NCBI GenBank assembly: GCA_963692945.1
Contig: OY843585.1
Coordinates: forward strand, 1,080,001-1,112,000
From: Bdellovibrionales bacterium
GTDB lineage: Bacteria; Bdellovibrionota; Bdellovibrionia; Bdellovibrionales; UBA1609
Direction: 5' to 3'
DNA length: 32,000 nucleotides
Of the stretch, positions 8,454 to 32,000 are shown piece by piece (positions within the stretch are counted from its first letter, which is position 1; each line of letters begins with the position of its first letter). A program made the translations under genes and the position numbers. Under the pieces are notes generated by a model, which searched no databases, was not told the origin of the DNA, and saw only the letters and a list, made by a program, of their open reading frames with translations.

Positions 8454-8747
8454 ACAAAACTCTAGTGTGTGAATTTTTATTTTCACGAGATTTGAAGAAC
8501 TTATCCATATGCGAAAAACCGTAGTTTTTCTCTAGGCATACCCTTTTTACTTTTTGAGGTTGAAGAGTGTCCCTCTTACGATGAAAACTCCTAAACTAAT
8601 TTGCGAAAACCAGTAGGTTTTCTCTAGTTCAAACATAAGCCTATTAAGCAACTCTTATTTTAACGAGATTTGAAGAGTGTCCCCTTTTACGATGAAAAGC
8701 TCGTTAAAATAAGAGTAGGAATTTACCTTAACTGAACGAGAGTTTTG
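8454..8747 (+). mobile_element. Mosaic palindromic repeat element (BIME/MITE-like) with imperfect 13-bp terminal inverted repeats
   Basis: Left end acaaaactctagtgtgtgaatttttattttcacgag (8454-8489) is identical to 21423-21458. Right end gaacgagagttttg (8734-8747) is its inverted copy with 1 mismatch. Core copies at 8560-8586 and 8668-8699. The second core is enclosed by a perfect 17-bp stem (8651-8667 / 8700-8716). Confidence 0.7.
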
Positions 8748-8748
8748 A

Positions 8749-9035
8749 TTTTACAGACTTAAGTACAAAGCACAAAGTTTAATAATTTATTAAACTTGAC
8801 TCTACCCCCCCCCATTTAAAACTAGTAATAATTAACCAAAGAAAGGAGAAAATTATGAAATATTTAATACTATTAAGTTTATTTTTTTGCATACAAGTTT
8901 TTGCAAAGAAACCAAATCTGTCGGACCTACCTGCTGTAGGTGTAGGTGGATATGGTGGTGCTGTGGTTACCAATAAGGGACTTCCAGGTGGTGGATATCC
9001 TGCAACTGGGAACGAGAGAGATATTAGAAAAGAAC
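8749..9035 (+). repeat. Direct repeat copy A: promoter, signal peptide and Gly-rich 5' cassette
   Basis: Near-identical to 13201-13465 outside the ~35-nt 5'UTR. One 21-bp in-frame indel (8967-8987). Confidence 0.9.
8796..8822 (+). promoter_or_regulatory. Candidate sigma70-type promoter with C9 tract in the spacer
   Basis: TTGACT (8796-8801), 15-nt spacer containing C9 (8805-8813), TAAAAC (8817-8822). RBS AAAGGAG lies 7 nt before the ATG at 8855. Confidence 0.5.
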
Positions 9036-9298
9036 AGTTACAAAGAAAGTATGATATTGATCAAGCCTATTTTCTAGGTCGCTTAGATACGGTAACAAAT
9101 AATTTGAAAAGTCTTAAAAAAGCAAATATAAAAAGATACCGTATGGGAAAAAATCTTTTTCAATATAGCATGAAGAACCCTTTTTCAAATAAGGAGATTG
9201 CTAAACGAGATTTCAAAATTCTTGAAAAAAGATACAGAAGTCTGAAGAAAAAGATAGGAACAATAGAAAAGATCTTAACACAAGGCCTGGTAAATTAA
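8855..9298 (+). CDS. Small secreted Gly-rich / Lys-rich helical protein, paralog A
   Basis: 147 aa. Signal peptide MKYLILLSLFFCIQVFA, GVGGYGGAV Gly-rich segment, basic C-terminal half. Paralog of 13307-13729. Confidence 0.75.
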   Translation: MKYLILLSLFFCIQVFAKKPNLSDLPAVGVGGYGGAVVTNKGLPGGGYPATGNERDIRKEQLQRKYDIDQAYFLGRLDTVTNNLKSLKKANIKRYRMGKNLFQYSMKNPFSNKEIAKRDFKILEKRYRSLKKKIGTIEKILTQGLVN

Positions 9299-9370
9299 AG
9301 AAATAAGCGTTAAGAAAAGAAGTAAACGTTAAGGTTGTAAAACTTTAACGGTTATTTTTACAAGACTTAA

Positions 9371-9580
9371 ACAAAACTCTAGTTCAGATCTAATACCCTT
9401 TTCTTTTTAGGAGATTTTCGTCGTAAGAGGGACACTCTTTTACAAAACTCTAGTGTTACCTTTCTTATTTTCTGACCTTTCATCGTAAGAGGGACACTCT
9501 TCAAGTTCAGAAAATAAGAAAGGGATTCATAGAGAAAACCTACTGGTTTTTTTTGCATGTGGTAATCTTTTCAAATCTCA
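9371..9580 (-). repeat. Mosaic palindromic repeat cluster, cores inverted relative to 8454-8747
   Basis: Reverse-complement cores at 9415-9441 (partial; lacks the TTGAA 5' end) and 9476-9506. The second is enclosed by a perfect 17-bp stem cctttcttattttctga / tcagaaaataagaaagg (9459-9475 / 9507-9523). acaaaactctagt motif at 9371-9383 and 9442-9454. Confidence 0.7.
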
Positions 9581-9614
9581 AAAAACAAAAAAGTCTTTCT
9601 AGGGAAAAATGGAG

Positions 9615-10187
9615 TTAACGAATTGGTTTTCTTGCTTTGGCTCCATGATCTTTAAGGATTTCAGCCACTTCTGTATGTTTTAAATTTTGTGCTTTTTCTA
9701 AAAGGAAAGGAATTCCGTTTTCATTTTTTTCGTTCACATCTGCTCCTGCTTCTATCAGAAGTTTTACGATTTTAGGAAAATTTTTAAAAACAGCCCAAAA
9801 AAGAGCTGAGTTTGGTCTTACTGATGATGATCCAAATGGATCACTTCTTGAATTAGGGTCATGACCTTTATCCAGAAGACATTTTACAGCTTCTGTGTCT
9901 CCAAATACGACAGATCTCGCAAGATCATCAGGTATTGTTAAAAGACGATCATTTTGTATCACCAACTCAACTGCTGGATCTATGGCAATAAATATACCAG
10001 ATTCAATAATGCGAGTTCGTTCTATCACCTTGCAACCTTTAACCATTTCATACTTTCTATTGGCTTCAAGATATTTTTTGGTTTCTTCTAGAGTCATGTT
10101 TTCATTTTTTTTCAGATTGTCATCTTCTTTACAAGAAAGTTGAAACAAGCTTCCAATAAGTATAAAAATAAATAAAATATATTTCAT
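9615..10187 (-). CDS. Ankyrin-repeat protein with signal peptide (possible lipoprotein), paralog 1
   Basis: 190 aa. N-terminus MKYILFIFILIGSLFQLSC. ANK-like segments (KIVKLLIEAGADVNEKNENG). Tandem paralog of 10341-10898. Confidence 0.8.
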   Translation of the reverse strand: MKYILFIFILIGSLFQLSCKEDDNLKKNENMTLEETKKYLEANRKYEMVKGCKVIERTRIIESGIFIAIDPAVELVIQNDRLLTIPDDLARSVVFGDTEAVKCLLDKGHDPNSRSDPFGSSSVRPNSALFWAVFKNFPKIVKLLIEAGADVNEKNENGIPFLLEKAQNLKHTEVAEILKDHGAKARKPIR

Positions 10188-10340: not shown

Positions 10341-10898
10341 TTAACGAATTGGTTTTTTTAGTGTAGCTCCATGAGCTTTAAGGATTTCTGCTATCTCTCC
10401 ATCAGAATGTATTAACAGAAAAGAATCTCCTTTATAATCTTTCTCATTTACGTTCGCTCCTGCTTCTGCCAGAAGCTTTACGATTTTAGGGTTATTGTTA
10501 GAAACAGCTAAATGAAGAGCGGAAGGTGGTACTCCTGCTGATCCAAATGGCTGACTTTTTACATTAGGGTCATGACCTTTATCCAGAAGACATTTTACAG
10601 CTTCTACATCTTCAAACGCAATAGACCTCACAAGGTCATCAGGTATTGTTAAGTCTTGTCTATTTTTTTCCAATAGCCTGCCTACTGAATCAAAGTCAAT
10701 AGATATACCAATCTGAATATTACGAGTTCGTTCTATCACCTTACAACCTTTAACCATTTCATATTTTCTTTCAGCTTCAAGAGTTCTTTTAGCTTCTTCT
10801 AGAGTCCTAAACCCTTCTATCCTTGGTATTTTATCTTCTTTACAAGAAAATTGAAATAAGCTTCCAATAAATATAAAAATAAATAAAATGTATTTCAT
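10341..10898 (-). CDS. Ankyrin-repeat protein with signal peptide (possible lipoprotein), paralog 2
   Basis: 185 aa. N-terminus MKYILFIFIFIGSLFQFSC. ANK motif KIVKLLAEAGANVNEKDYKG. Shares its C-terminal KPIR and long identical nucleotide runs with paralog 1. Confidence 0.8.
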   Translation of the reverse strand: MKYILFIFIFIGSLFQFSCKEDKIPRIEGFRTLEEAKRTLEAERKYEMVKGCKVIERTRNIQIGISIDFDSVGRLLEKNRQDLTIPDDLVRSIAFEDVEAVKCLLDKGHDPNVKSQPFGSAGVPPSALHLAVSNNNPKIVKLLAEAGANVNEKDYKGDSFLLIHSDGEIAEILKAHGATLKKPIR

Positions 10899-10964: not shown

Positions 10965-12839
10965 TTAAAAATACTTACATGCATTAGCTGTAGGTTCTTG
11001 ATGATTAGGGGTTTTTTTCTTTTCTTTTGTATTTAAGTTTTTAATTCTATTTTCAATGTATTTTTTCATATCCTTAAATCTATTTATTCCTTCAGCCTTA
11101 CTCATAAGTTCAATAGATTCTTTACTAGCTTGTAATAAAAAAGCTCTAGCTGAGACCATAATCTCTATAGATTTACTGTTTGTATATTTATTAATTGCTC
11201 CCAAAATAAGAAGTAAATTCTTACACTTACAAAATTTTTCTGGCTGAAGATTCGCTTTCTTTATAAATGGCTCAATTTGATCAGAGGAAATACATATAGA
11301 TTTTATCTGTCCTAATGGAATCTTTCTTTGTGATCCTTGAGTCACACAAGCCACTTCATTTTTATTAAATACACCACCACCACTATATCCAGGGACAATG
11401 TTAGTTTCCTTTAATTGACCATAGTCATTATTTAAGAAGATAACTTTTCCTGATTCAATAACACTTAAGTCACTTTTTAAATATTCCACAACACTTCCTT
11501 TTGGAACATTAGAGGTTAAAGGAATGTTTTTATTTAACTGAGCTTGAAACATTTTATTTATTTCTTCCTCTGTTACAAGACCTTTTTTTGCAAGTTGCTG
11601 AAGATATATTCTCTCTGAAGGTTCTAACAAATCTCCATTTGTTATAGGATTTCCTATAATTTCAAGAAGAGCTAAATCAAGATCACAATCATAATAGATA
11701 ATATTAGCTGATTTCTTTTTACCAGATGTTAATGTAATAGATACACTTTGACCTGTTTGAGCTTGTTTTTTAACACCTGTATTGTCACTTATTACATGAT
11801 AGTTTGTAATAATGTATTTTGATGAATACAAAAAGCCATTTCCAGTTCCTGCGATTGAATTGACCCTAACCCCTCTCAATATACTTGAAAAAGGAGATGT
11901 TTCAAGCAATTCTAAGAGCTCTTTTTTTAATTTTTCAACTTCTTCAGTTTCTCCTATGTCTTTCATAAAAATTATTTTTCGTTTAATTTCTTCTGCTCTG
12001 CTAAGCCAGATTTGTAAATTTGCTTTTGCAACATCACTTGGAGCTACTTGAGCAAAAAAGGCTTGTAGTTTTTTTGCCTTTGCTATTTGAATGTCTAAGT
12101 AAGGTTCAAATGTATTTTTAAATTCAATAAATTGTTCTTTAGTTATCTTAGGAGGGGGAATTAAGGAGGGATTTATACCATTTTCAGGGACACTTTGTGG
12201 GTTTCTCAGATCAGGTATAATTTGAGGTCTTGTCGGTGTTGTTGGAATTGGATCAGGAGAAGTCGGTGTTGTTGTAAGAGGAGGATCAGAAATAATTTGA
12301 GATGTAGGTGTCGTTATAGGAGGATCATAAGGATTAAGTCTATCTGATAAACCCTCTGTTGTTCTAAAAAAATCTGGTTGAATGCGATTTATTTCATCTT
12401 GATTTTCATTTATAATGCTAATGGCTTCGTCTTTATCTTTTGAACTTCCATATTTTAATACATCTTTATAGTATTTTAAACCCTCTCTTTTATCTTTTCT
12501 TACACCCTTAGCTCCATAAAAATACATATGAGCTATAAATGGAGCTGTTTCTTTTTTGTAACCCAAGTCATAGGACTCTTTAAAATCTTCTAAGGATTTC
12601 GCCATATTAGGTTTTATAAAAAGTTCATCTGTTCCTTGATGTTTCACTCCGTAGTAATGTATTTTTCCCATTTCAAAAAGATATTCTTTATCTTTTTTTG
12701 AGTAGGCTTTTTCTTTTATAAAATTATAGCTGTCAGGGAACATCACAAGATTTTCAGAAAAACTAAAAAAAGGGGAAAATAAAAGAAGAAGAAAAAGACT
12801 TTTAAAGGACATTAAAATAATATATCGGAAAATTATCAA
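10965..12839 (-). CDS. Secreted Sel1-like repeat, Pro/Thr linker, trypsin-like (S1) serine protease fusion
   Basis: Signal peptide, then Sel1-like repeats (IAHMYFYGAKGVRKDKREGLKYYKDV) and a PT-rich linker (PPITTPTSQ...TTPTRPQ). Catalytic triad context: TNYHV (His), DLDLALLEI (Asp), GYSGGGVF (Ser). The track start is TTG at 12839; ATG at 12812 (MSFKSLF...) is an alternative. Confidence 0.75.
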   Translation of the reverse strand: MIIFRYIILMSFKSLFLLLLFSPFFSFSENLVMFPDSYNFIKEKAYSKKDKEYLFEMGKIHYYGVKHQGTDELFIKPNMAKSLEDFKESYDLGYKKETAPFIAHMYFYGAKGVRKDKREGLKYYKDVLKYGSSKDKDEAISIINENQDEINRIQPDFFRTTEGLSDRLNPYDPPITTPTSQIISDPPLTTTPTSPDPIPTTPTRPQIIPDLRNPQSVPENGINPSLIPPPKITKEQFIEFKNTFEPYLDIQIAKAKKLQAFFAQVAPSDVAKANLQIWLSRAEEIKRKIIFMKDIGETEEVEKLKKELLELLETSPFSSILRGVRVNSIAGTGNGFLYSSKYIITNYHVISDNTGVKKQAQTGQSVSITLTSGKKKSANIIYYDCDLDLALLEIIGNPITNGDLLEPSERIYLQQLAKKGLVTEEEINKMFQAQLNKNIPLTSNVPKGSVVEYLKSDLSVIESGKVIFLNNDYGQLKETNIVPGYSGGGVFNKNEVACVTQGSQRKIPLGQIKSICISSDQIEPFIKKANLQPEKFCKCKNLLLILGAINKYTNSKSIEIMVSARAFLLQASKESIELMSKAEGINRFKDMKKYIENRIKNLNTKEKKKTPNHQEPTANACKYF

Positions 12840-12926: not shown

Positions 12927-13200
12927 AATTTCATTTAAAAAATGAATAAAGTTCTAAAGAATATATAATTTCCTACAAAAACAAGTTCTAAAAAGGAGGA
13001 TGAAAATAAAAAAAGCCCTCTCAAAAAGAGGACTTTTTATTTATTAAGAAAGAGATGTGCTTACCTTATTTTTGGTCTGAATCTCTTGCCACTTCTTGCC
13101 AATGAGTGCTATTCTTTGCCTTTAAAAGTGTTGATTTACTTATGTTTTATTGAATTTACAACGCTCCAAATTTTTCCTACTCATTGAGGTTTTAAAAAAA

Positions 13201-13465
13201 TTTACAGACTTAAGTACAAAGCACAAAGCTTAATAATTTATTAAACTTGACTCTACCCCCCCCCATTTAAAATAAAATATAACATAATTAAACAAAGGAG
13301 GAAATTATGAAATATTTAATACTATTAAGTTTATTTTTTTGCATACAAGTTTTTGCAAAGAAACCAAGTTTGTCGGACCTACCTGCTGTAGGTGTAGGTG
13401 GATATGGTGGTGCTGTGGGTGGTGGATATCCTGGAACTGGGAACGAGAGAGATATTAGAGAAGAA
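13201..13465 (+). repeat. Direct repeat copy B: promoter, signal peptide and Gly-rich 5' cassette
   Basis: See 8749-9035. The two copies lie in direct orientation 4.45 kb apart. Confidence 0.9.
13247..13273 (+). promoter_or_regulatory. Candidate sigma70-type promoter with C9 tract in the spacer
   Basis: TTGACT (13247-13252), 15-nt spacer containing C9 (13256-13264), TAAAAT (13268-13273). RBS AAAGGAGG precedes the ATG at 13307. Confidence 0.5.
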
Positions 13466-13729
13466 ACTTTACAAAAATATTATTCTAGTCAAGTATTTGA
13501 TTGGGGGGGTCACGTAGAAACGGTAAGAAACAGTTTGAAAAATCTTAACAGAGCAAATGATAAAAAATACCGTCAGGGAAAAAAATTATTTGAATATAGA
13601 AAAGCGCAGAAATTTTCAAACCAGGCACTTGCTAGAAAAGATTTAAAAGATCTTAAAACAAGCCACTACAACGTGAAAAAAAATATAGCAAGAATAGAAG
13701 ATATGTTAAAACGACTAGATGCGCGTTAA
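13307..13729 (+). CDS. Small secreted Gly-rich / Lys-rich helical protein, paralog B
   Basis: 140 aa. The first ~38 aa are near-identical to paralog A, while the C-terminal half is diverged but alignable. Contains a G7 run at 13503-13509. Confidence 0.75.
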   Translation: MKYLILLSLFFCIQVFAKKPSLSDLPAVGVGGYGGAVGGGYPGTGNERDIREETLQKYYSSQVFDWGGHVETVRNSLKNLNRANDKKYRQGKKLFEYRKAQKFSNQALARKDLKDLKTSHYNVKKNIARIEDMLKRLDAR

Positions 13730-13770
13730 GTTTTTACAAGCTTAAGGTTTATTCTAACAAGATTCAGATA

Positions 13771-13798
13771 AGAGTTAAGGTTTTACAATCTTAACTCT
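13771..13798 (+). terminator. Candidate terminator hairpin of paralog B
   Basis: agagttaag-gttttacaat-cttaactct gives a 9-bp stem, but the downstream T tract is weak. Confidence 0.4.
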
Positions 13799-14090
13799 TA
13801 TTCTAACGAGATTTGAAGAGTGTCCCCTCTTACGATGAAAGCTCCTAAACTAATGTGCGAAAACCAGCAGGTTTTCTCTAGGAACACCCCTCCTTATTTT
13901 CTGAACTTGAAGAGTGTCCCTCTTACGATGAAAGCTCCTAAACTAATGTGCGAAAACCAGCAGGTTTTCTCTAGTTCAAACATAAGCCTATTAAGTAACT
14001 CTTATTTTAACGAGATTTGAAGAGCGTCCCTCTTGCGATGAAAAGCTCGTTAAAATAAGAGTAGGAAATATTTTTTTGAACGAGAGTTTC
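13798..14090 (+). repeat. Mosaic palindromic repeat array (three cores, one 95-bp direct duplication)
   Basis: Cores at 13811-13841, 13906-13934 and 14015-14045. The ~70-nt module 13811-13881 is repeated at 13906-13975. The third core is enclosed by a 17-bp stem (13998-14014 / 14046-14062). A right-end-like gaacgagagtttc motif lies at about 14078-14090. Confidence 0.75.
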
Positions 14091-14125: not shown

Positions 14126-14135
14126 TCAATATAAA

Positions 14136-14250
14136 GTTGGCATCTTGCTACTCTCCCTTAAGGCAAACTTAAAGTACCATCGCCGTTGGTGGGCTTAACT
14201 GCTGTGTTCGGAATGGGAACAGGTGTTACACCACCGCTATTGACACCAAC
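14136..14250 (-). rRNA. rrf: 5S ribosomal RNA
   Basis: The reverse complement contains CCGAACACAGCAGTTAAGC, GCGATGGTACT and GGGAGAGTAGCAAGATGCCAAC. Helix I ends pair (GTTGGTGTC / GATGCCAAC). About 115 nt. Confidence 0.9.
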
Positions 14251-14361
14251 AATCTGTCAATCTTAAATATTTTGCTCTATAATTTACAATATAATTATAG
14301 AAACAAACAAATGTATATCAATTCAAATCATTCTTAGCTTTTATCAATTGAGCATTTTCCA

Positions 14362-17328
<2,967 letters not shown>

Positions 17329-17500
17329 TTTCTAAATAACGTCTCTTGATAAAATTTTTATGCCAAGAATGATTTGAATTGATCAAACCATTTTTTTCCG
17401 CAAAAAATGATAACAAATTGTTATAATTGTTTGTTTCTTTTATATAATTTACACTATTCAATTTTCAAAGAGCAAAAATCTTATGAGATTTTGAAAGAGA

Positions 17501-20134: not shown

Positions 20135-20851
20135 TTAGTTATCTTTCCAGCAACTTTTGGTTGATAAGCCTAACTTTCCTCTGATTCTTTGGCATTTCCC
20201 CTCAGATAACAAATTAGCAAGATTTTTATTAGAAACATAGTTAATGGCTTTTCTTCCATTTTCATCTTGAATGCCTACATCGGCTCCTGATTTTAGCAAC
20301 AGTTTAACAACCTCTATATGTCCTCCAATAGAAGCCCATATCAAAGCTGTTTTTTCCTGTTGACCTTGAATATCTACATCTGCTTCTTCTAAAAGTAACA
20401 GTTCAACAAGCTCTGGATGTCCTTGACTAGAAGCATGCATTAGAGCTGTATTCCCATAGGTGTTTTGACGATTTACATCTGCTTCTTCTAAAACCAACAG
20501 TTCAGCAATCTCTATATGCCCTTCATTAGAAGCATGCATCAGAGCTGTTTTTCCATTTTTATCTTGAATGTCTGCATCTGCTCCTTCTAAAAGTAACAGT
20601 TCAACAATCTCTATATGTCCTTTATGAGAAGCCCATGTCAGAGCTGTATCCCCAGATACATTTTGACGGTTCAGATCCTTTTCTTCTAACACCTTTAACT
20701 TTATCAGTTTTTTAACAATATCTACATCGCCTTTTTCAACAGCCAAAAAGAAGATTTCTATCTTTTCTTGAATGATCTCTGAAATATCTGCATAAGTTGA
20801 AGTGACTACAAAAGTAGTAAAAAAGGATAATACTAAAAATAATTTTTTCAT
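20135..20851 (-). CDS. Secreted ankyrin-repeat protein (about 5 regular 33-aa ANK repeats)
   Basis: GDTALTWASHKGHIEIVELLLLEGADADIQDKNGKTALMHASNEGHIEIAELL... . I prefer the ATG at 20851 (MKKLFLVLSFF...), which is preceded by AAGGAG, over the track start at 20884. Confidence 0.85.
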   Translation of the reverse strand: MKKLFLVLSFFTTFVVTSTYADISEIIQEKIEIFFLAVEKGDVDIVKKLIKLKVLEEKDLNRQNVSGDTALTWASHKGHIEIVELLLLEGADADIQDKNGKTALMHASNEGHIEIAELLVLEEADVNRQNTYGNTALMHASSQGHPELVELLLLEEADVDIQGQQEKTALIWASIGGHIEVVKLLLKSGADVGIQDENGRKAINYVSNKNLANLLSEGKCQRIRGKLGLSTKSCWKDN

Positions 20852-21056
20852 AAATACTCCTTTTAAGGATGTTGAACCATTCACATATTGAGGGATTTAA
20901 AAAATAAAATCAAGATAGAAACCAAAAAGTGCAAAAATTTCAAAAAGAGCTAAAAATTAAAACAGGATTCCTTCTTTTTTAAACTTAGGACAATGATTAT
21001 CGGTTTTTAGAAAATTTAAGACTAAATATCACTTTCCTAGCGGGTCATAAAATTTC

Positions 21057-26160: not shown

Positions 26161-29010
26161 ATGAAAGCAACACAAAAACCCAGTTTCACTAAAAGACACC
26201 TAGGACCAGACAAGGAAGAACAGTCTCAAATCCTAAAATCTTTAAAAGTCTCTTCTCTAGATGAACTCACTCAATCTGCTATTCCCTCTGAAATTTATGG
26301 AAAAGACACCTTTCAGCTAGGACCTCCTTTATCCGAACAAGCTTTGTTGAAAAAAGCCAAACTATTGGGAGAGAAAAACAAACTTTTCAAAAATTATATT
26401 GGAATGGGCTACAATCCTTCTATCACACCAGGAGTTATCACTCGCAACATTCTAGAAAACCCTGTGTGGTACACATCTTATACACCTTATCAATCCGAAC
26501 TGGCTCAAGGACGACTTGAAGCTCTTTTAAATTTTCAAACTGTCATCAAAGATTTAACAGGAATGGAAATAGCCAATGCCTCTCTACTGGATGAAGGAAC
26601 GGCTGCTGCAGAAGCTCTTGTTTTAACAAAAAATGTCAATGAACAAAAACCTAAAGCTCATAAATTTTTTGTAGATCAATATTGTTTTCCTCAAACTCTA
26701 GATGTTTTAAAAACAAGGTCTGAATCTCTTGGTTGGGAAATGGAAGTAGGAGATTTTAAAACTTTCAAAGGAGGTGAAGAGTATTTTTCTGTTATCATTC
26801 AATATCCAAATAGCCTTGGCTCTATTGAAGACATCCAAGCTTTTCTCAAAAAAATGGAAGAACAAAATATTCTTTCTATAGTTATTACAGATCCTCTAAG
26901 TTTAACACTGCTCACTCCACCAGGAGAGATGGGAGCTCATGTTGTTGTAGGCAGTTCTCAAAGATTAGGCTTGGCTCTTTTTTTTGGTGGCCCTCATGCA
27001 GCTTATTTTGCCACAAAAGAAAAATATGTTCATTCTATGCCCGGAAGAATTGTAGGTCTTTCAAAAGATCGCCACAACAATCCCGCTCTAAGACTTGCTC
27101 TTCAAGTTAGAGAACAACATATAAAAAGAGAAAGAGCGACAAGTAATATTTGCACAGCTCAAGTGCTTCTAGCCATTGCAGCCAGCTTCTATGCCGTCTA
27201 TCATGGACCTAAAGGTTTAAAAAAAATATCCAGTAAAATTAATGATTTAACAAAAAAACTTTATGAAATACTTTCATCATTTGAAGGAGAAATAAAAAAC
27301 TCCAGTTTCTTTGATACCATTTACTGGGAACTGGATTCCGAAGAAAAAGCACAAGAAATACAAAAACTTTTTTGGAAGGAAGAAATCAATATTGGAAGAC
27401 CTAGCTTAACAAGTCTTTCTTGGACACTCAACGAAACAACTGAAGAAGAAGATTTGCTAAAAATAAAAGAGATTTTAAAAAATCAGTCTGTTGTTCTTTC
27501 TAACAAAAAAACGAGAAAAGAAGCCATAGGAATACCGCAAAAATTACAAAGAATGAGTGATTACTTAAAGCACCCTACTTTTAACAACTACCACTCTGAA
27601 ACAAAAATTCTTAGGTATATACACAAACTTCAAAATAAAGAATTATCACTGACACACTCTATGATTCCCCTAGGTTCTTGCACTATGAAATTAAATTCTG
27701 TAACAGAAATGACAGCTCTTTCTTGGCCTTGTTTTTCAGATTTACATCCTTTTGCCCCTACAGATCAAAGCCAAGGTTATCGTGAGTTGATTAAAGAGTT
27801 GGAACAACAACTGTGTGAGTTGACAGGATTTCATAGTTTTTCTTTCCAACCCAATGCTGGATCTCAAGGAGAGTATGCTGGTCTTTTAGCTATTAAAACC
27901 TATCATCAAAAAAAGAATCAAAGTCATAGAAATATCTGTTTAATACCCTCTTCTGCTCATGGAACCAATCCCGCTAGTGCTATAATGGCAGGATTAAAAG
28001 TTGTCCCTGTCGCTTGCACAAAAGAAGGACCTATTGATCAAGAGGATTTACAAAACAAACTGAAAATTTATGGAGATAAATTATCTTGTATAATGATAAC
28101 CTACCCTTCAACTTATGGTGTTTTTGAAGAAGGCATAACAGAAATTTGTTCTAAAATTCATAACTCTGGAGGACTTGTCTATCTTGACGGAGCCAATATG
28201 AATGCTCTTCTTGGTCTTTGTAAATTAAGAAGTATTGGATTTGATGTTTGCCATTTAAATTTACATAAAACTTTTTGTATTCCTCACGGCGGAGGAGGTC
28301 CTGGAGTAGGCCCTGTAGGTGTTTGTGAAGAATTAAAAGATTTTTTACCAAACCATTGGACTTTTAAAAAAGATTCTGCACTTGGAGCCATTAGTTCTTC
28401 TCCTTATGGAAGTGCAGGTATTTTATCTATTTCTTGGGCTTATATTTCTTTAATGTCTCACGAAGGTTTAAAACAATCGGCTCAAGTGGCTATAGCCAAT
28501 GCAAATTACATTGCAGAACAATTACAACCTTTCTATCGCGTTCTCTTTAAAGGAAAAAACAATCGGGTGGCTCATGAATGCATTGTGGATTTTAGAAAAT
28601 TCAAAAATACAGCAGGTGTTACTATTGATGATATTTCCAAACGTTTAATAGATTATGGCTTTCATGCTCCTACAATGTCTTGGCCTGTTCCTGGAACTTT
28701 AATGATAGAACCTACAGAAAGTGAATCCAAAGAGGAGATGGATAAGTTTTGTTCTGCACTTATCTCTATTAAAAAAGAAATTGAAGAGACTGAAAAAAAT
28801 CTAAAGTTTTCTTTATTGAAAAATGCTCCTCATACTTTAGAAGATGCTCTTAAAGAAAAATGGCCTTTTTCTTACTCTAAAGAACAAGCGTTTTACCCTT
28901 TAAGCTGGATTAAGGAACGTAAGTTTTGGCCAGCCGTTTCTCGTATTGAAAATGCTTACGGAGATATTCATCTTGTTTGTTCATGTCCTTCTATGAAAGA
29001 TTTTGAATAA
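26161..29010 (+). CDS. gcvP: Glycine dehydrogenase (decarboxylating), single-chain P protein
   Basis: 949 aa. N-terminal FTKRHLGPD and PLP-lysine region HLNLHKTFCIPHGGGGPG. Confidence 0.93.
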   Translation: MKATQKPSFTKRHLGPDKEEQSQILKSLKVSSLDELTQSAIPSEIYGKDTFQLGPPLSEQALLKKAKLLGEKNKLFKNYIGMGYNPSITPGVITRNILENPVWYTSYTPYQSELAQGRLEALLNFQTVIKDLTGMEIANASLLDEGTAAAEALVLTKNVNEQKPKAHKFFVDQYCFPQTLDVLKTRSESLGWEMEVGDFKTFKGGEEYFSVIIQYPNSLGSIEDIQAFLKKMEEQNILSIVITDPLSLTLLTPPGEMGAHVVVGSSQRLGLALFFGGPHAAYFATKEKYVHSMPGRIVGLSKDRHNNPALRLALQVREQHIKRERATSNICTAQVLLAIAASFYAVYHGPKGLKKISSKINDLTKKLYEILSSFEGEIKNSSFFDTIYWELDSEEKAQEIQKLFWKEEINIGRPSLTSLSWTLNETTEEEDLLKIKEILKNQSVVLSNKKTRKEAIGIPQKLQRMSDYLKHPTFNNYHSETKILRYIHKLQNKELSLTHSMIPLGSCTMKLNSVTEMTALSWPCFSDLHPFAPTDQSQGYRELIKELEQQLCELTGFHSFSFQPNAGSQGEYAGLLAIKTYHQKKNQSHRNICLIPSSAHGTNPASAIMAGLKVVPVACTKEGPIDQEDLQNKLKIYGDKLSCIMITYPSTYGVFEEGITEICSKIHNSGGLVYLDGANMNALLGLCKLRSIGFDVCHLNLHKTFCIPHGGGGPGVGPVGVCEELKDFLPNHWTFKKDSALGAISSSPYGSAGILSISWAYISLMSHEGLKQSAQVAIANANYIAEQLQPFYRVLFKGKNNRVAHECIVDFRKFKNTAGVTIDDISKRLIDYGFHAPTMSWPVPGTLMIEPTESESKEEMDKFCSALISIKKEIEETEKNLKFSLLKNAPHTLEDALKEKWPFSYSKEQAFYPLSWIKERKFWPAVSRIENAYGDIHLVCSCPSMKDFE

Positions 29011-29250
29011 ACCGTATTTTATAAACACTTACTTTTTATTTTTTCTGAACAATATTTTTGAATACGGTAACTAGCGATTTGAAGATTTTGAATAAACCGT
29101 ATTTTATAAACACTTACTTTTTATTTTTTCTGAACAATATTTTTGAATACGGTAACTAGCGATTTGAAGATTTTGAATAAACCGTATTTATAAACACTTA
29201 CTTTTTATTTTTTCTGAACAATATTTTTGAATACGGTAACTAGCGATTTG
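28997..29250. repeat. 85-bp tandem repeat x3 spanning the 3' ends of both convergent genes
   Basis: Units at 28997-29081, 29082-29166 and 29167-29250 (84 bp). Each carries aagattttgaataa (gcvP end plus stop) and the reverse complement of the last 21 codons plus stop of the 29188-30582 gene. Confidence 0.92.
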
Positions 29251-30582
29251 AAAAATAGATTTTTCTTTTCCAAGATTATGATTCAAATATTTATTTAAGT
29301 TCAAAGGTTCTTTTGTATTTGATGCCACTGTTCTAGTGGAATCATCATCTCCTCCATAAGAATCATCAGAATCTGAATCTCTAAAACCACCACCACCAGA
29401 AGAACCAGTAAATCCTCCATTAGACCAGTATTCAGGTTCAGAGTAACCGCCATAATCTCCATCATTATCACCAAAATCGGGTCCACCACCTGGAGGACCT
29501 CCACCACCTCCACCACCTGGAGGAGCTCCACCTGAAGGAGTTTCCTCTCCACCGGCAAGGCTAGAAAAACCATTGTTTTTATATTTGCTATCCGAGTTAC
29601 CATCATTAGAAAAATCATCACCTATATCATTAAATGGTGGATTGGAACCAAATTTACTATCATCTGGAGTGTCTGGTGTGTTCCCAGCCAATAATGCATT
29701 ACCAGATGGTGCAGAAGGTAATGATGGCGACGAGGGTTGATTAGGAGGAGTGTATCCAGCGGCTGCTTGTTGGCAGGCTTGAAGCTGTAAATTTCTCATA
29801 GAAGCTTCTAATTGTTTTGGTTCTATACCATTTAAAATTTTATCACAAACTACAAAATCCTCTATACCTCTTCCCCTCGTAAATGTTGTTGATCTATTCT
29901 TGAGAGTTCCTTCTTTATATTTTTTATCAATTTCTTCAACTATTTTTTCAATTTTATCCTCATTGCCTTCTATTTTTTTACATTTATCTATAACATTTGT
30001 TGCTATTTCTCTTAAATCAACCAATGAAGAATCTAATAGTGCTGTTGCTTTTTCTTCTGGAAGATTTTGAATAAAATCTTCTATAAGTGTTATTAAAAAT
30101 TCTCTATAATGTGCTTCACAAGTTTTTGTACATTTATCCATACTGTCAGAACAGCTACTTGTTTGTATGGTTTTAAAGGCATCTGTTAAAGATCTAGGAA
30201 TTTGAGAAAGATTACTATATTTACAGGCCTCATAAGGATCTCCTGAAACAGAACCTCTCACTTGATAATAGGTTTCTAATAATGGAAGACCAACTTGAGC
30301 TAAACTATCTTTTACATTATCTCTAATCCTTTTAGAACATTTTCCCTGATTTATGCAACAATTATTGGTTTCTTCTTTAGCCTCATTACATACAACATTC
30401 AAACTACGACTATCTTTTTGATCTATATAGGAGTAAGATTTTAATTTAGCAACAAATGTAGTAACATTATCATTACCAGCAGTAAGATTAGTAGGAAAAG
30501 ATTTACATCCATAGTTATCTAAATTAATCCCTGCATTAGATAAAAAAGGAAACAAAAATATTAAAATATAAAATCTAAACAT
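29188..30582 (-). CDS. Secreted protein: Cys-rich N-terminal domain plus Gly/Pro/Asp/Ser low-complexity tail
   Basis: 464 aa with signal peptide MFRFYILIFLFPFLSNA. About 20 Cys lie in the first 270 aa. Tail includes PPGGGGGGGPPGGGPDFGDNDGDYGGY. No family recognised. Confidence 0.7.
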   Translation of the reverse strand: MFRFYILIFLFPFLSNAGINLDNYGCKSFPTNLTAGNDNVTTFVAKLKSYSYIDQKDSRSLNVVCNEAKEETNNCCINQGKCSKRIRDNVKDSLAQVGLPLLETYYQVRGSVSGDPYEACKYSNLSQIPRSLTDAFKTIQTSSCSDSMDKCTKTCEAHYREFLITLIEDFIQNLPEEKATALLDSSLVDLREIATNVIDKCKKIEGNEDKIEKIVEEIDKKYKEGTLKNRSTTFTRGRGIEDFVVCDKILNGIEPKQLEASMRNLQLQACQQAAAGYTPPNQPSSPSLPSAPSGNALLAGNTPDTPDDSKFGSNPPFNDIGDDFSNDGNSDSKYKNNGFSSLAGGEETPSGGAPPGGGGGGGPPGGGPDFGDNDGDYGGYSEPEYWSNGGFTGSSGGGGFRDSDSDDSYGGDDDSTRTVASNTKEPLNLNKYLNHNLGKEKSIFQIASYRIQKYCSEKIKSKCL

Positions 30583-30785: not shown

Positions 30786-30833
30786 CTTATTTGATAAAAT
30801 AAATTTTTGAAATATTAACTTAATAAAATCTTT

Positions 30834-31021
30834 TTTCTATTCCTAAGTGCAATAAGATATTTAAAGTAAAAACTTCTATTTTTCTGTTCCTAAGTGCAAT
30901 AAGATATTTAAAGTAAAAATTTCTGTTTTTCTGTTCCTAAATGCAGCAAAATATTTAAAGTAAAAATTTCTTTTTTTCTATTCCTAAGTTCAACGAGATA
31001 TTTAAAGTAAAAACTTCTGCT
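30834..31021. repeat. 47-bp tandem repeat x4; the last unit contains the fusA stop and final codons
   Basis: Units at 30834-30880, 30881-30927, 30928-30974 and 30975-31021, with cctaag at a 47-bp period. Units 1-3 are diverged copies of ttaaagtaaaaacttct..., the reverse complement of the fusA 3' end. Confidence 0.88.
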
Positions 31022-32000
31022 TTTCTTTTTCAGGGAGTAAGCCATAAGCCTCCATTTCCATAGAAAAACTAGCTCTACCCTGACTCAAAGATCTTAAATC
31101 CGTTGCATAACCAAACATATTCATTAAAGGCACTTGAGCAAAAATAAGAGTCCTATCTTTTTGTTTTTCCATACCAGCTATTTGCCCTCTACGAGTGTTT
31201 AAATCACTAATGATAGGACCTGTAAACTCTTCAGGACTGGAGATTTCTAATTTAAAAATAGGTTCTAAAAGATCACTCCCAACCTCCATCAACCCTTTAC
31301 GAAAGACTTGATAAGTTACCGATTGAAGAGCTAAAACACTTAACTCGTCTTCTTTATAATCTATTTTTTTTAAACAAACTTCTAAATCTCTTAAAGGATA
31401 TCCCATAAAAGGACCAGAAGACATTCCTTGTTCTAAACCTGTCTCAACTGCTTTTGTAAACTCTGGATTTAAATTTTTTAAAACACCACTATCCTTTTTA
31501 AAAAGATATCCCTTATTTTTTTCTAAAGGCTTTAAACTTAATGTCATTTTTGCATAGTGTTTAGCACCCTGTATTTCTTTAGAAAATTCAAAAGAACCTT
31601 CCCAAGAGGAAGACGGAGTCTCTCTAAAAGAAACTTGTGGTTTTCCAATACGAGCTTCAACTTTATAATCTTTTAAAAGTCTATCCACTAAAATTTCTAA
31701 ATGGAGTTCTCCCATTCCCATAAGTAAAGTTTGACCTGTTTCTAAATCTTTTTGAACCTGACAAGAAGGGTCTTCTCTTTGAATCTTTTGAAGTGCTTCT
31801 TCAATTTTACTTTGATCCACAGAGGTTTTTGCTTCAATAGCTACAGAAATAACAGGTTCAGGAAATTTCACTTTTTCTAAAATAACACTCTTATCTTTTG
31901 CACAAAGAGTGTCCCCAGTTTGAGTCCATTTCAAACCAGCAATAACTCCAATATCTCCTGAATAAATTTCTTTAACTTCTTTTCTAGAATTGGCATGCAC
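31002..32000 (-). CDS. fusA: Elongation factor G (canonical or paralog), C-terminal 332 aa; N-terminus off-window
   Basis: GLKWTQTGDTL (domain II), MGELHLEILVDRL, and domain IV/V sequence through to the stop. Confidence 0.88.
   Translation of the reverse strand: MHANSRKEVKEIYSGDIGVIAGLKWTQTGDTLCAKDKSVILEKVKFPEPVISVAIEAKTSVDQSKIEEALQKIQREDPSCQVQKDLETGQTLLMGMGELHLEILVDRLLKDYKVEARIGKPQVSFRETPSSSWEGSFEFSKEIQGAKHYAKMTLSLKPLEKNKGYLFKKDSGVLKNLNPEFTKAVETGLEQGMSSGPFMGYPLRDLEVCLKKIDYKEDELSVLALQSVTYQVFRKGLMEVGSDLLEPIFKLEISSPEEFTGPIISDLNTRRGQIAGMEKQKDRTLIFAQVPLMNMFGYATDLRSLSQGRASFSMEMEAYGLLPEKEKQKFLL

Follow-up and report, generated by a model that had tools for sequence, protein, structure and literature searches.

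The question raised by this locus is whether a run of nine cytosines, set between two promoter-like hexamers upstream of a small exported-protein gene (paralog B), makes its promoter switchable by changes in tract length, and whether a copy of the same arrangement upstream of a diverged paralog (A) provides a second, independent switch. Such a pair had been proposed in the initial annotation of the 32,000-nt stretch of DNA analysed here (the window), together with four A/B expression states, which are by plain arithmetic the product of two on/off promoters.

The candidate C9-spacer promoters and their shared block

The candidate promoter upstream of paralog B was read directly from the window and comprises, with the gene that follows it, these elements:

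13247–13273, plus strand: candidate promoter B, TTGACT-CTACCCCCCCCCATT-TAAAAT, 10 of 12 consensus bases
13247–13252, plus strand: -35-like hexamer TTGACT (5/6), shared with the candidate 23S-5S rRNA promoter
13256–13264, plus strand: C9 tract, CCCCCCCCC, within the 15-nt spacer CTA-C9-ATT
13268–13273, plus strand: -10-like hexamer TAAAAT (5/6), spacer 15 nt
13273–13278, plus strand: overlapping second TAAAAT, spacer 20 nt at C9 and 17 nt at C6
13295–13301, plus strand: ribosome-binding site (RBS) AAGGAGG, 5 nt before the ATG
13307–13729, plus strand: paralog B, 140 aa

The initial annotation, which had given TTGACT, a 15-nt spacer with C9 at 13256–13264 and TAAAAT, was exact to the base at this locus. 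The candidate promoter ends 33 nt before the ATG of paralog B (13307). Hexamer matches of 10/12 occur five to seven times per spacer class in the AT-rich window, which is the chance level, and it is position and conservation that carry the promoter call. No other promoter-like site was found on the plus strand near gene A or B, and a scanner limited to 16–18-nt spacers called neither the A nor the B site. Other promoter types were considered: within or upstream of the conserved block described below, no alternative had at least 4/6 matches in both hexamers at 14–20 nt; the consensus sequences of sigma-28 and sigma-54 promoters did not fit the block by eye; and an ECF-type promoter with AAACTT as the -35 is conceivable but came without a convincing -10.

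The second copy of the arrangement occupies 8796–8822, 4.45 kb upstream of the B copy, and precedes paralog A:

8796–8801, plus strand: -35-like hexamer TTGACT
8805–8813, plus strand: C9 tract of A
8817–8822, plus strand: -10-like hexamer TAAAAC, without the conserved final T
8855–9298, plus strand: paralog A, 147 aa, with the B-type architecture and a 7-aa linker insertion

The architecture had been described as the same at both genes, and this holds for the shared TTGACT and C9, whereas the second hexamer is TAAAAC at A and TAAAAT at B. Because of the TAAAAC hexamer at A, the two switches need not act alike: A may be weaker in every tract state, or may lean more on a factor that binds the palindrome next to the -35. 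Tract length is identical at the two loci, C9 at A and C9 at B, for two copies in one genome.

These tracts depart strongly from what base composition predicts. The GC content of the window is 33%, and the two C9 tracts are the only C or G runs of at least 8 in its 32 kb, the longest remaining C run being 6. Composition would give 0.007 C9 runs per window, and the four overlapping C8 matches observed compare with 0.17 on average in shuffled sequence, a count of four being reached in none of 100 shuffles. Both tracts have the length (about 8 nt or more) and the excess over composition that mark the homopolymers of contingency promoters. They are to be counted as non-independent events, since both sit in one duplicated 72-nt block, which carries a palindrome immediately upstream of the -35:

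13201–13272, plus strand: conserved promoter block of B, 71/72 identical to 8750–8821
8750–8821, plus strand: conserved promoter block of A, 71/72 identical to 13201–13272
13226–13248, no strand assigned: 23-nt AT-rich palindrome of B, AAGCTTAATAATTTATTAAACTT, one mismatch
8775–8797: 23-nt AT-rich palindrome of A, perfect

Taken segment by segment, the nucleotide identity between A and B forms a mosaic:

Upstream flank: 49%
72-nt block: 99%
22-nt leader from the -10 to the RBS (8822–8843 vs 13273–13295): 59%
RBS to ATG: 91%
First ~175 nt of the coding sequence: 97%
Remaining coding sequence: 67%
Downstream: 50%

Against a background identity of 70–80%, a 71/72 match has P ≤ 2e-6. Upstream, A and B share nothing but the block, and it is there, between the -35- and -10-like hexamers, that the tract of B lies, as had been claimed. 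Comparison of the block with Rfam families, plasmids and the other window sequence gave no match, and Rfam at a permissive threshold returned just sub-threshold hairpin look-alikes away from it. Identity stops inside the -10 hexamer, and for this reason the conserved feature may be an upstream regulatory site and not the core promoter. The palindrome, with the layout AAGTTTAATAA-T-TTATTAAACTT, shares two bases with the -35 and occurs within the window at the A and B loci only; no cognate regulator or regulon motif for it was found elsewhere in the window. Judged from its sequence and its position abutting the -35, it is a candidate regulator site or UP-like element. The diverged 22-nt leader between the 99% and 97% segments is explained neither by one conversion tract nor by simple purifying selection.

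Each promoter block together with the first ~175 nt of its coding sequence makes up a module (8750–9030 and 13201–13460), and the two modules are direct repeats, 97–99% identical and 4.45 kb apart, which bracket two ankyrin genes and a protease gene. They lend themselves to gene conversion, and to deletions or duplications that would yield an A/B chimera.

The paralog cassettes, their products and the surrounding island

Beyond the promoter block, each gene is delimited by the following features, which include a second homopolymer in B:

13010–13038: bidirectional terminator-like hairpin upstream of B
13724–13747, plus strand: terminator-like hairpin of B, straight after the stop codon, with a second, longer hairpin at about 13764–13808
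9318–9359, plus strand: terminator hairpin of A, -16 kcal/mol, z -4.3, followed by a T-run
13503–13509, plus strand: G7 run in the coding sequence of B, codons W-G-G, absent from A

The upstream neighbours of A and of B are both on the opposite strand, and B is in addition shielded by a terminator, so that each gene needs its own promoter. With a divergent neighbour, its own RBS and its own terminator hairpin, each paralog is a monocistronic cassette. The layout of A and B, with a shared 5' block, divergent C-termini and monocistronic units, is that of the vlp genes discussed below.

The paralogs had been called diverged, and with an A/B amino-acid identity of 57–59% they are. Divergence is unevenly distributed: dS is 0.03 over the first 51 aligned codons, and over the remaining 89 aligned codons dS is 0.31 and dN 0.50, the synonymous contrast between the 5' and 3' parts of the coding sequence being significant (p=0.003). 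The dN/dS of about 1.6 in the 3' part is not significantly above 1 (Fisher p=0.14). On these figures the 5' module is homogenised, through conversion and/or selection, and the helical domain evolves under little or no purifying constraint. A conserved 5' block followed by a divergent C-terminus is typical of variable exported-protein families. The G7 run is the sole G run of at least 6 in the 32-kb window, and slippage by +/-1 at this site would truncate B to 80 or 69 aa; B may therefore carry a second, translational switch.

As to the products, the N-termini of A and B, MKYLILLSLFFCIQVFA|KKP, have the form of a signal peptide with a VFA cleavage-type site; in B the signal peptide spans residues 1–17 (VFA|KK). 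The earlier suggestion of a secreted product thus agrees with what both proteins appear to carry, namely a cleavable-type signal peptide. For the antigen role also suggested there, no support was found. No lipobox was found in A or B: LFFC does not constitute one, and its Cys is absent from the relative P0004 introduced below, which keeps the cleavage-type site as AFA|KN. AlphaFold, run with a two-sequence alignment (mean pLDDT 73), predicted a signal helix, a disordered Gly/Tyr-rich linker (residues 15–44) and a two-helix hairpin, which in B covers residues 46–100 and 106–139 at a pLDDT of about 90. The mature proteins are of about 14 kDa and basic, with a pI of about 10. The linker (8918–9010 vs 13370–13440) is of low complexity, GVGGYGGAV...GGGYP, and the insertion in A reads VTNKGLP.

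Neither Pfam nor NCBIfam families matched A or B, and a PDB fold search with the AlphaFold model retrieved generic helical hairpins only (best E 0.39). A Spy/CpxP-like chaperone was considered for the product and dropped, having neither a Pfam nor a fold match. In a word-indexed search of 5.8 billion proteins, A and B matched each other only, and an exhaustive HMMER profile search of 1.84 billion representatives added one further relative, P0004 (E 6e-4). This third, distant paralog has 133 aa, is about 31% identical and shows the layout of signal peptide, Gly-rich stretch and NLKNLK ... IEQLLK helices; a three-sequence profile search placed its gene on the same 1.56-Mb contig as A and B, outside the window. 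As far as known, A, B and P0004 constitute an orphan family of three confined to one genome. Searched as a DNA pattern, the promoter with a variable C-tract gave no matches in species-representative genomes and none in metagenome contigs. The shared N-terminal coding 20-mer gave four matches in metagenomes, all of them chance matches with no extended homology.

The housekeeping genes of the window include those for TldD/PmbA, acyl-CoA dehydrogenase, TyrRS, RNase Y, GcvP and Fe-S proteins. GcvP has its best match, in a set of 185,579 species representatives, in a marine Bdellovibrionales bacterium MAG (78% identical), all further matches being 54% or less. Cassettes A and B sit in an island (8.4–14.1 kb) between housekeeping genes and the 5S gene, in which a trypsin-like protease gene and a tandem pair of ankyrin-repeat paralogs are found as well. 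The ankyrin paralogs (9615–10187 and 10341–10898, minus strand) repeat with a 711-bp period and share 121 identical residues of about 190; their N-termini, MKYILFIF...LSCKED, resemble a signal peptide with a Cys, and the proteins are possibly lipoproteins. A third ankyrin protein gene lies at 20135–20884. Signal-peptide-like starts are also seen in the protease (10965–12839), orf209, orf536 and orf464. Most other non-housekeeping ORFs of the window begin in the same way, and the region appears, to judge from its reading frames, to be rich in exported proteins. A host-associated lifestyle is suggested by the small genome (1.56 Mb) together with the many exported ankyrin proteins.

Within the window, REP/MITE-like hairpin repeats, with five copies of the core GAAGAGTGTCCCTCTTACGATGAAA and 48–143-nt repeat families, are found in the island only:

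8470–8720: REP/MITE-like repeats
9398–9600: REP/MITE-like repeats, inverted
13790–14070: REP/MITE-like repeats

Cassette A has such repeats on either side, and cassette B on its downstream side. The folding energy of one unit is -25 kcal/mol (z -6.2), and no Rfam family reached threshold for these repeats. The 23S-5S rRNA pair (14135–17335, minus strand) has no 16S or tRNA gene adjacent to it. Elsewhere in the window, intergenic tandem repeats occur at 28997–29252 (85 bp x 3.0, 99% identical, between the convergent ends of gcvP and orf464), at 30832–31026 (47 bp x 4.1, 88%, upstream of orf464) and at 175–260 (39 bp x 2.2, 100%).

Proposed spacer-length switching and competing readings

By analogy, it seems on balance probable that the A and B promoters are slipped-strand, spacer-length contingency promoters of the porA, tp0126 or vlp kind. 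Each paralog would then be a self-contained unit of a sigma-70-type promoter, a small exported-protein gene and a terminator. Through slipped-strand mispairing in replication, the tract would gain or lose cytosines, and the distance from the -35 to the -10 would change with it. At C9 the spacer is 15 nt and the promoter is predicted to be weak or off, and at C10, C11 and C12, with spacers of 16, 17 and 18 nt, it is predicted to be on; the second TAAAAT of B would open a further on window at C5–C7, again with spacers of 16–18 nt. The outcome would be heritable, reversible and stochastic expression, on/off or graded, set independently at each locus. Gene conversion and/or selection would preserve the uniformity of the promoter and signal-peptide module, and the C-terminal helical domains are left to diverge. 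We infer, in other words, that the hexamers form a real promoter and that tract length varies and sets expression.

The best candidate promoter of the 23S-5S pair, TTGACT-N17-TAGATT (17529–17501, minus strand, about 165 nt upstream of the 23S gene), bears on the spacing that this organism prefers: it combines the same TTGACT as in A and B with the canonical 17 nt, which suggests that promoters here follow the usual spacing rule, with 15 nt below the optimum. The other intergenic regions held too few promoters for a spacer preference to be derived, and the rRNA candidate is the only suggestive case. Both A and B promoters are predicted to be low or off in the assembly, one or two slippage steps away from on.

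Three other readings compete with spacer-length switching. A static promoter, in which C9 is fixed and was copied in the duplication while a conventional regulator acting at the palindrome, or an alternative or ECF-type sigma factor reading AAACTT, switches the genes, is unlikely, though it deserves serious consideration. Equal tract lengths lend it mild support. The palindrome stands at a class-II-activator-like position, abutting the -35, and is conserved in both copies; conservation ends inside the -10, which is TAAAAC at A; and a 15-nt spacer is poor for unaided sigma-70, which makes an accessory factor plausible. Yet a nine-base G/C homopolymer is an intrinsic slippage hotspot, promoter tracts of such length vary in most systems examined (PMC7864442), and, with no other such run in the window, runs of this kind are no general trait of the genome. 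An activator site, moreover, can coexist with phase variation, as in the tpr promoters. Another view dispenses with the promoter altogether: the block and the ~175 nt of coding sequence would stem from recent gene conversion or recombination, or would mark where a repeat or mobile unit ends, with C9 as a passenger or part of a 5' UTR whose transcription starts further upstream. Homogenised synonymous sites in the 5' coding sequence (dS 0.03 vs 0.31, p=0.003) do speak for conversion and not for selection, REP/MITE-like hairpin repeats surround the cassettes, and no hexamer match exceeds chance by itself; but the 59% leader between two homogenised segments is something that one conversion tract does not explain, nothing better was found upstream, where B is preceded by a bidirectional terminator and a divergent gene, and the block resembled nothing in Rfam, plasmids or the rest of the window. 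We consider this view improbable.

The tract lengths themselves might also be miscalled, C9 being a product of consensus building or basecalling. True tracts that were longer (e.g. C10–C11) or heterogeneous could give normal 16–17-nt spacers and promoters that are constitutively on. Homopolymers of this length are the classic error mode of long-read assemblies, and the 1.56-Mb contig suggests a long-read or hybrid assembly; identical lengths at the two loci would fit a systematic ceiling. The assembly nevertheless appears well polished, since no frames are broken at the many A/T runs of 7–9 in the window, and the presence of the tracts is certain, their exact length alone being at issue. A mixed read population would, for its part, favour phase variation. 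There is, in our estimate, little chance that such an artefact accounts for the observed lengths.

Spacer-length switching could also be part of something larger. It is conceivable, but at present doubtful, that this is the first contingency-locus system in a Bdellovibrionales-related, small-genome and apparently host-associated bacterium, with a secreted basic helical-hairpin family of at least three members under layered hypermutable switches. The layers would be the promoter C-tract at two loci, the intragenic G7 in one of them and the near-identical direct 5' modules of ~250 bp, which could exchange, or could delete the 4.45-kb ankyrin and protease block with its effector-like genes.

Significance and comparison with known systems

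Literature searches on this lineage and on homopolymer-tract phase variation in Bdellovibrio found nothing relevant. If the tracts vary, slipped-strand phase variation would extend to a phylum, best known for predators of bacteria, for which the latter search gave no report of it, and the orphan secreted family, located in an island rich in genes for exported ankyrin-repeat proteins and a protease, would be marked as probably taking part in host or prey interaction under diversifying pressure. For this organism, the C9 tracts would also provide an inexpensive read-level marker of population heterogeneity. With fixed tracts, the locus would be just a duplicated promoter with an odd spacer, of local interest.

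The closest mechanistic counterparts are porA of Neisseria meningitidis and tp0126 of Treponema pallidum, in which transcription is best at a 17-nt spacer and is lost on shortening (PMC7864442). A G/C homopolymer of about 9–11 nt lies between the -35 and the -10, as it would in the candidate promoters of A and B, and a gene for an exported or surface protein follows. Of the T. pallidum poly-G tracts of at least 8, 76% were variable, and 9 is a typical modal length, which places C9 within the range of lengths that vary in proven systems (PMC7864442). Unlike porA and tp0126, A and B belong to a Bdellovibrionales-related lineage of 33% GC, and their product is a small, soluble-looking helical hairpin in place of a beta-barrel porin or OmpW.

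The closest counterpart in layout is vlp of Mycoplasma hyorhinis. In vlp, as in maa2 of M. arthritidis and vmm of M. mycoides, indels in the -35/-10 spacer switch transcription (PMC2268961), and the vlp paralogs are expressed combinatorially (PMC11868660). The vlp system resembles A and B in having several paralogs, each a transcription unit of its own with a homopolymer in its -35/-10 spacer, a candidate spacer in the case of A and B. As Yogev et al. 1991 and Citti & Wise 1995 reportedly showed, the vlp genes have a highly conserved promoter and signal-peptide block and divergent C-termini, and such a mosaic of conserved 5' block and divergent C-termini is the one seen in A and B. At the same time, the vlp tracts are poly-A and encoded downstream are lipoproteins whose C-termini consist of tandem repeats, whereas A and B have poly-C, no lipobox and a helical-hairpin C-terminus. 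Homology of A or B to Vlp lipoproteins was sought in Pfam, NCBIfam and protein databases, and none was found; A and B are an analogue of vlp and not a member of that family.

Regulated promoters with homopolymers provide a further comparison. The tpr promoters of T. pallidum combine CRP sites with poly-G (PMC7864442). In tprE/G/J and tprL, as in A and B, each paralog has its own promoter-associated G/C homopolymer of about 8–11 nt; the tpr tract, however, lies upstream of or overlaps the -10 and has no role in -35/-10 spacing, whereas the tract of A and B is squarely in the candidate spacer. In fim2 and fim3 of Bordetella pertussis, a promoter poly-C adjoins or overlaps a regulator-dependent -35 region. 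The opc gene of N. meningitidis likewise has a promoter poly-C beside or overlapping a regulator-dependent -35 region (PMC3960869, PMC7864442). The tracts of fim2/fim3 and opc, of about 11–15, replace or overlap the -35, whereas that of A and B is downstream of a good TTGACT; the palindrome abutting the -35 of A and B could fill the role that an activator site has in those promoters. Taken together, by these analogies, A and B look like a combination of the porA/tp0126 spacer mechanism with the vlp layout, although they belong to none of these protein families, showing no homology to them, no lipobox and another fold class. The mechanism is well known; the novelty lies in the lineage and in the orphan protein family.
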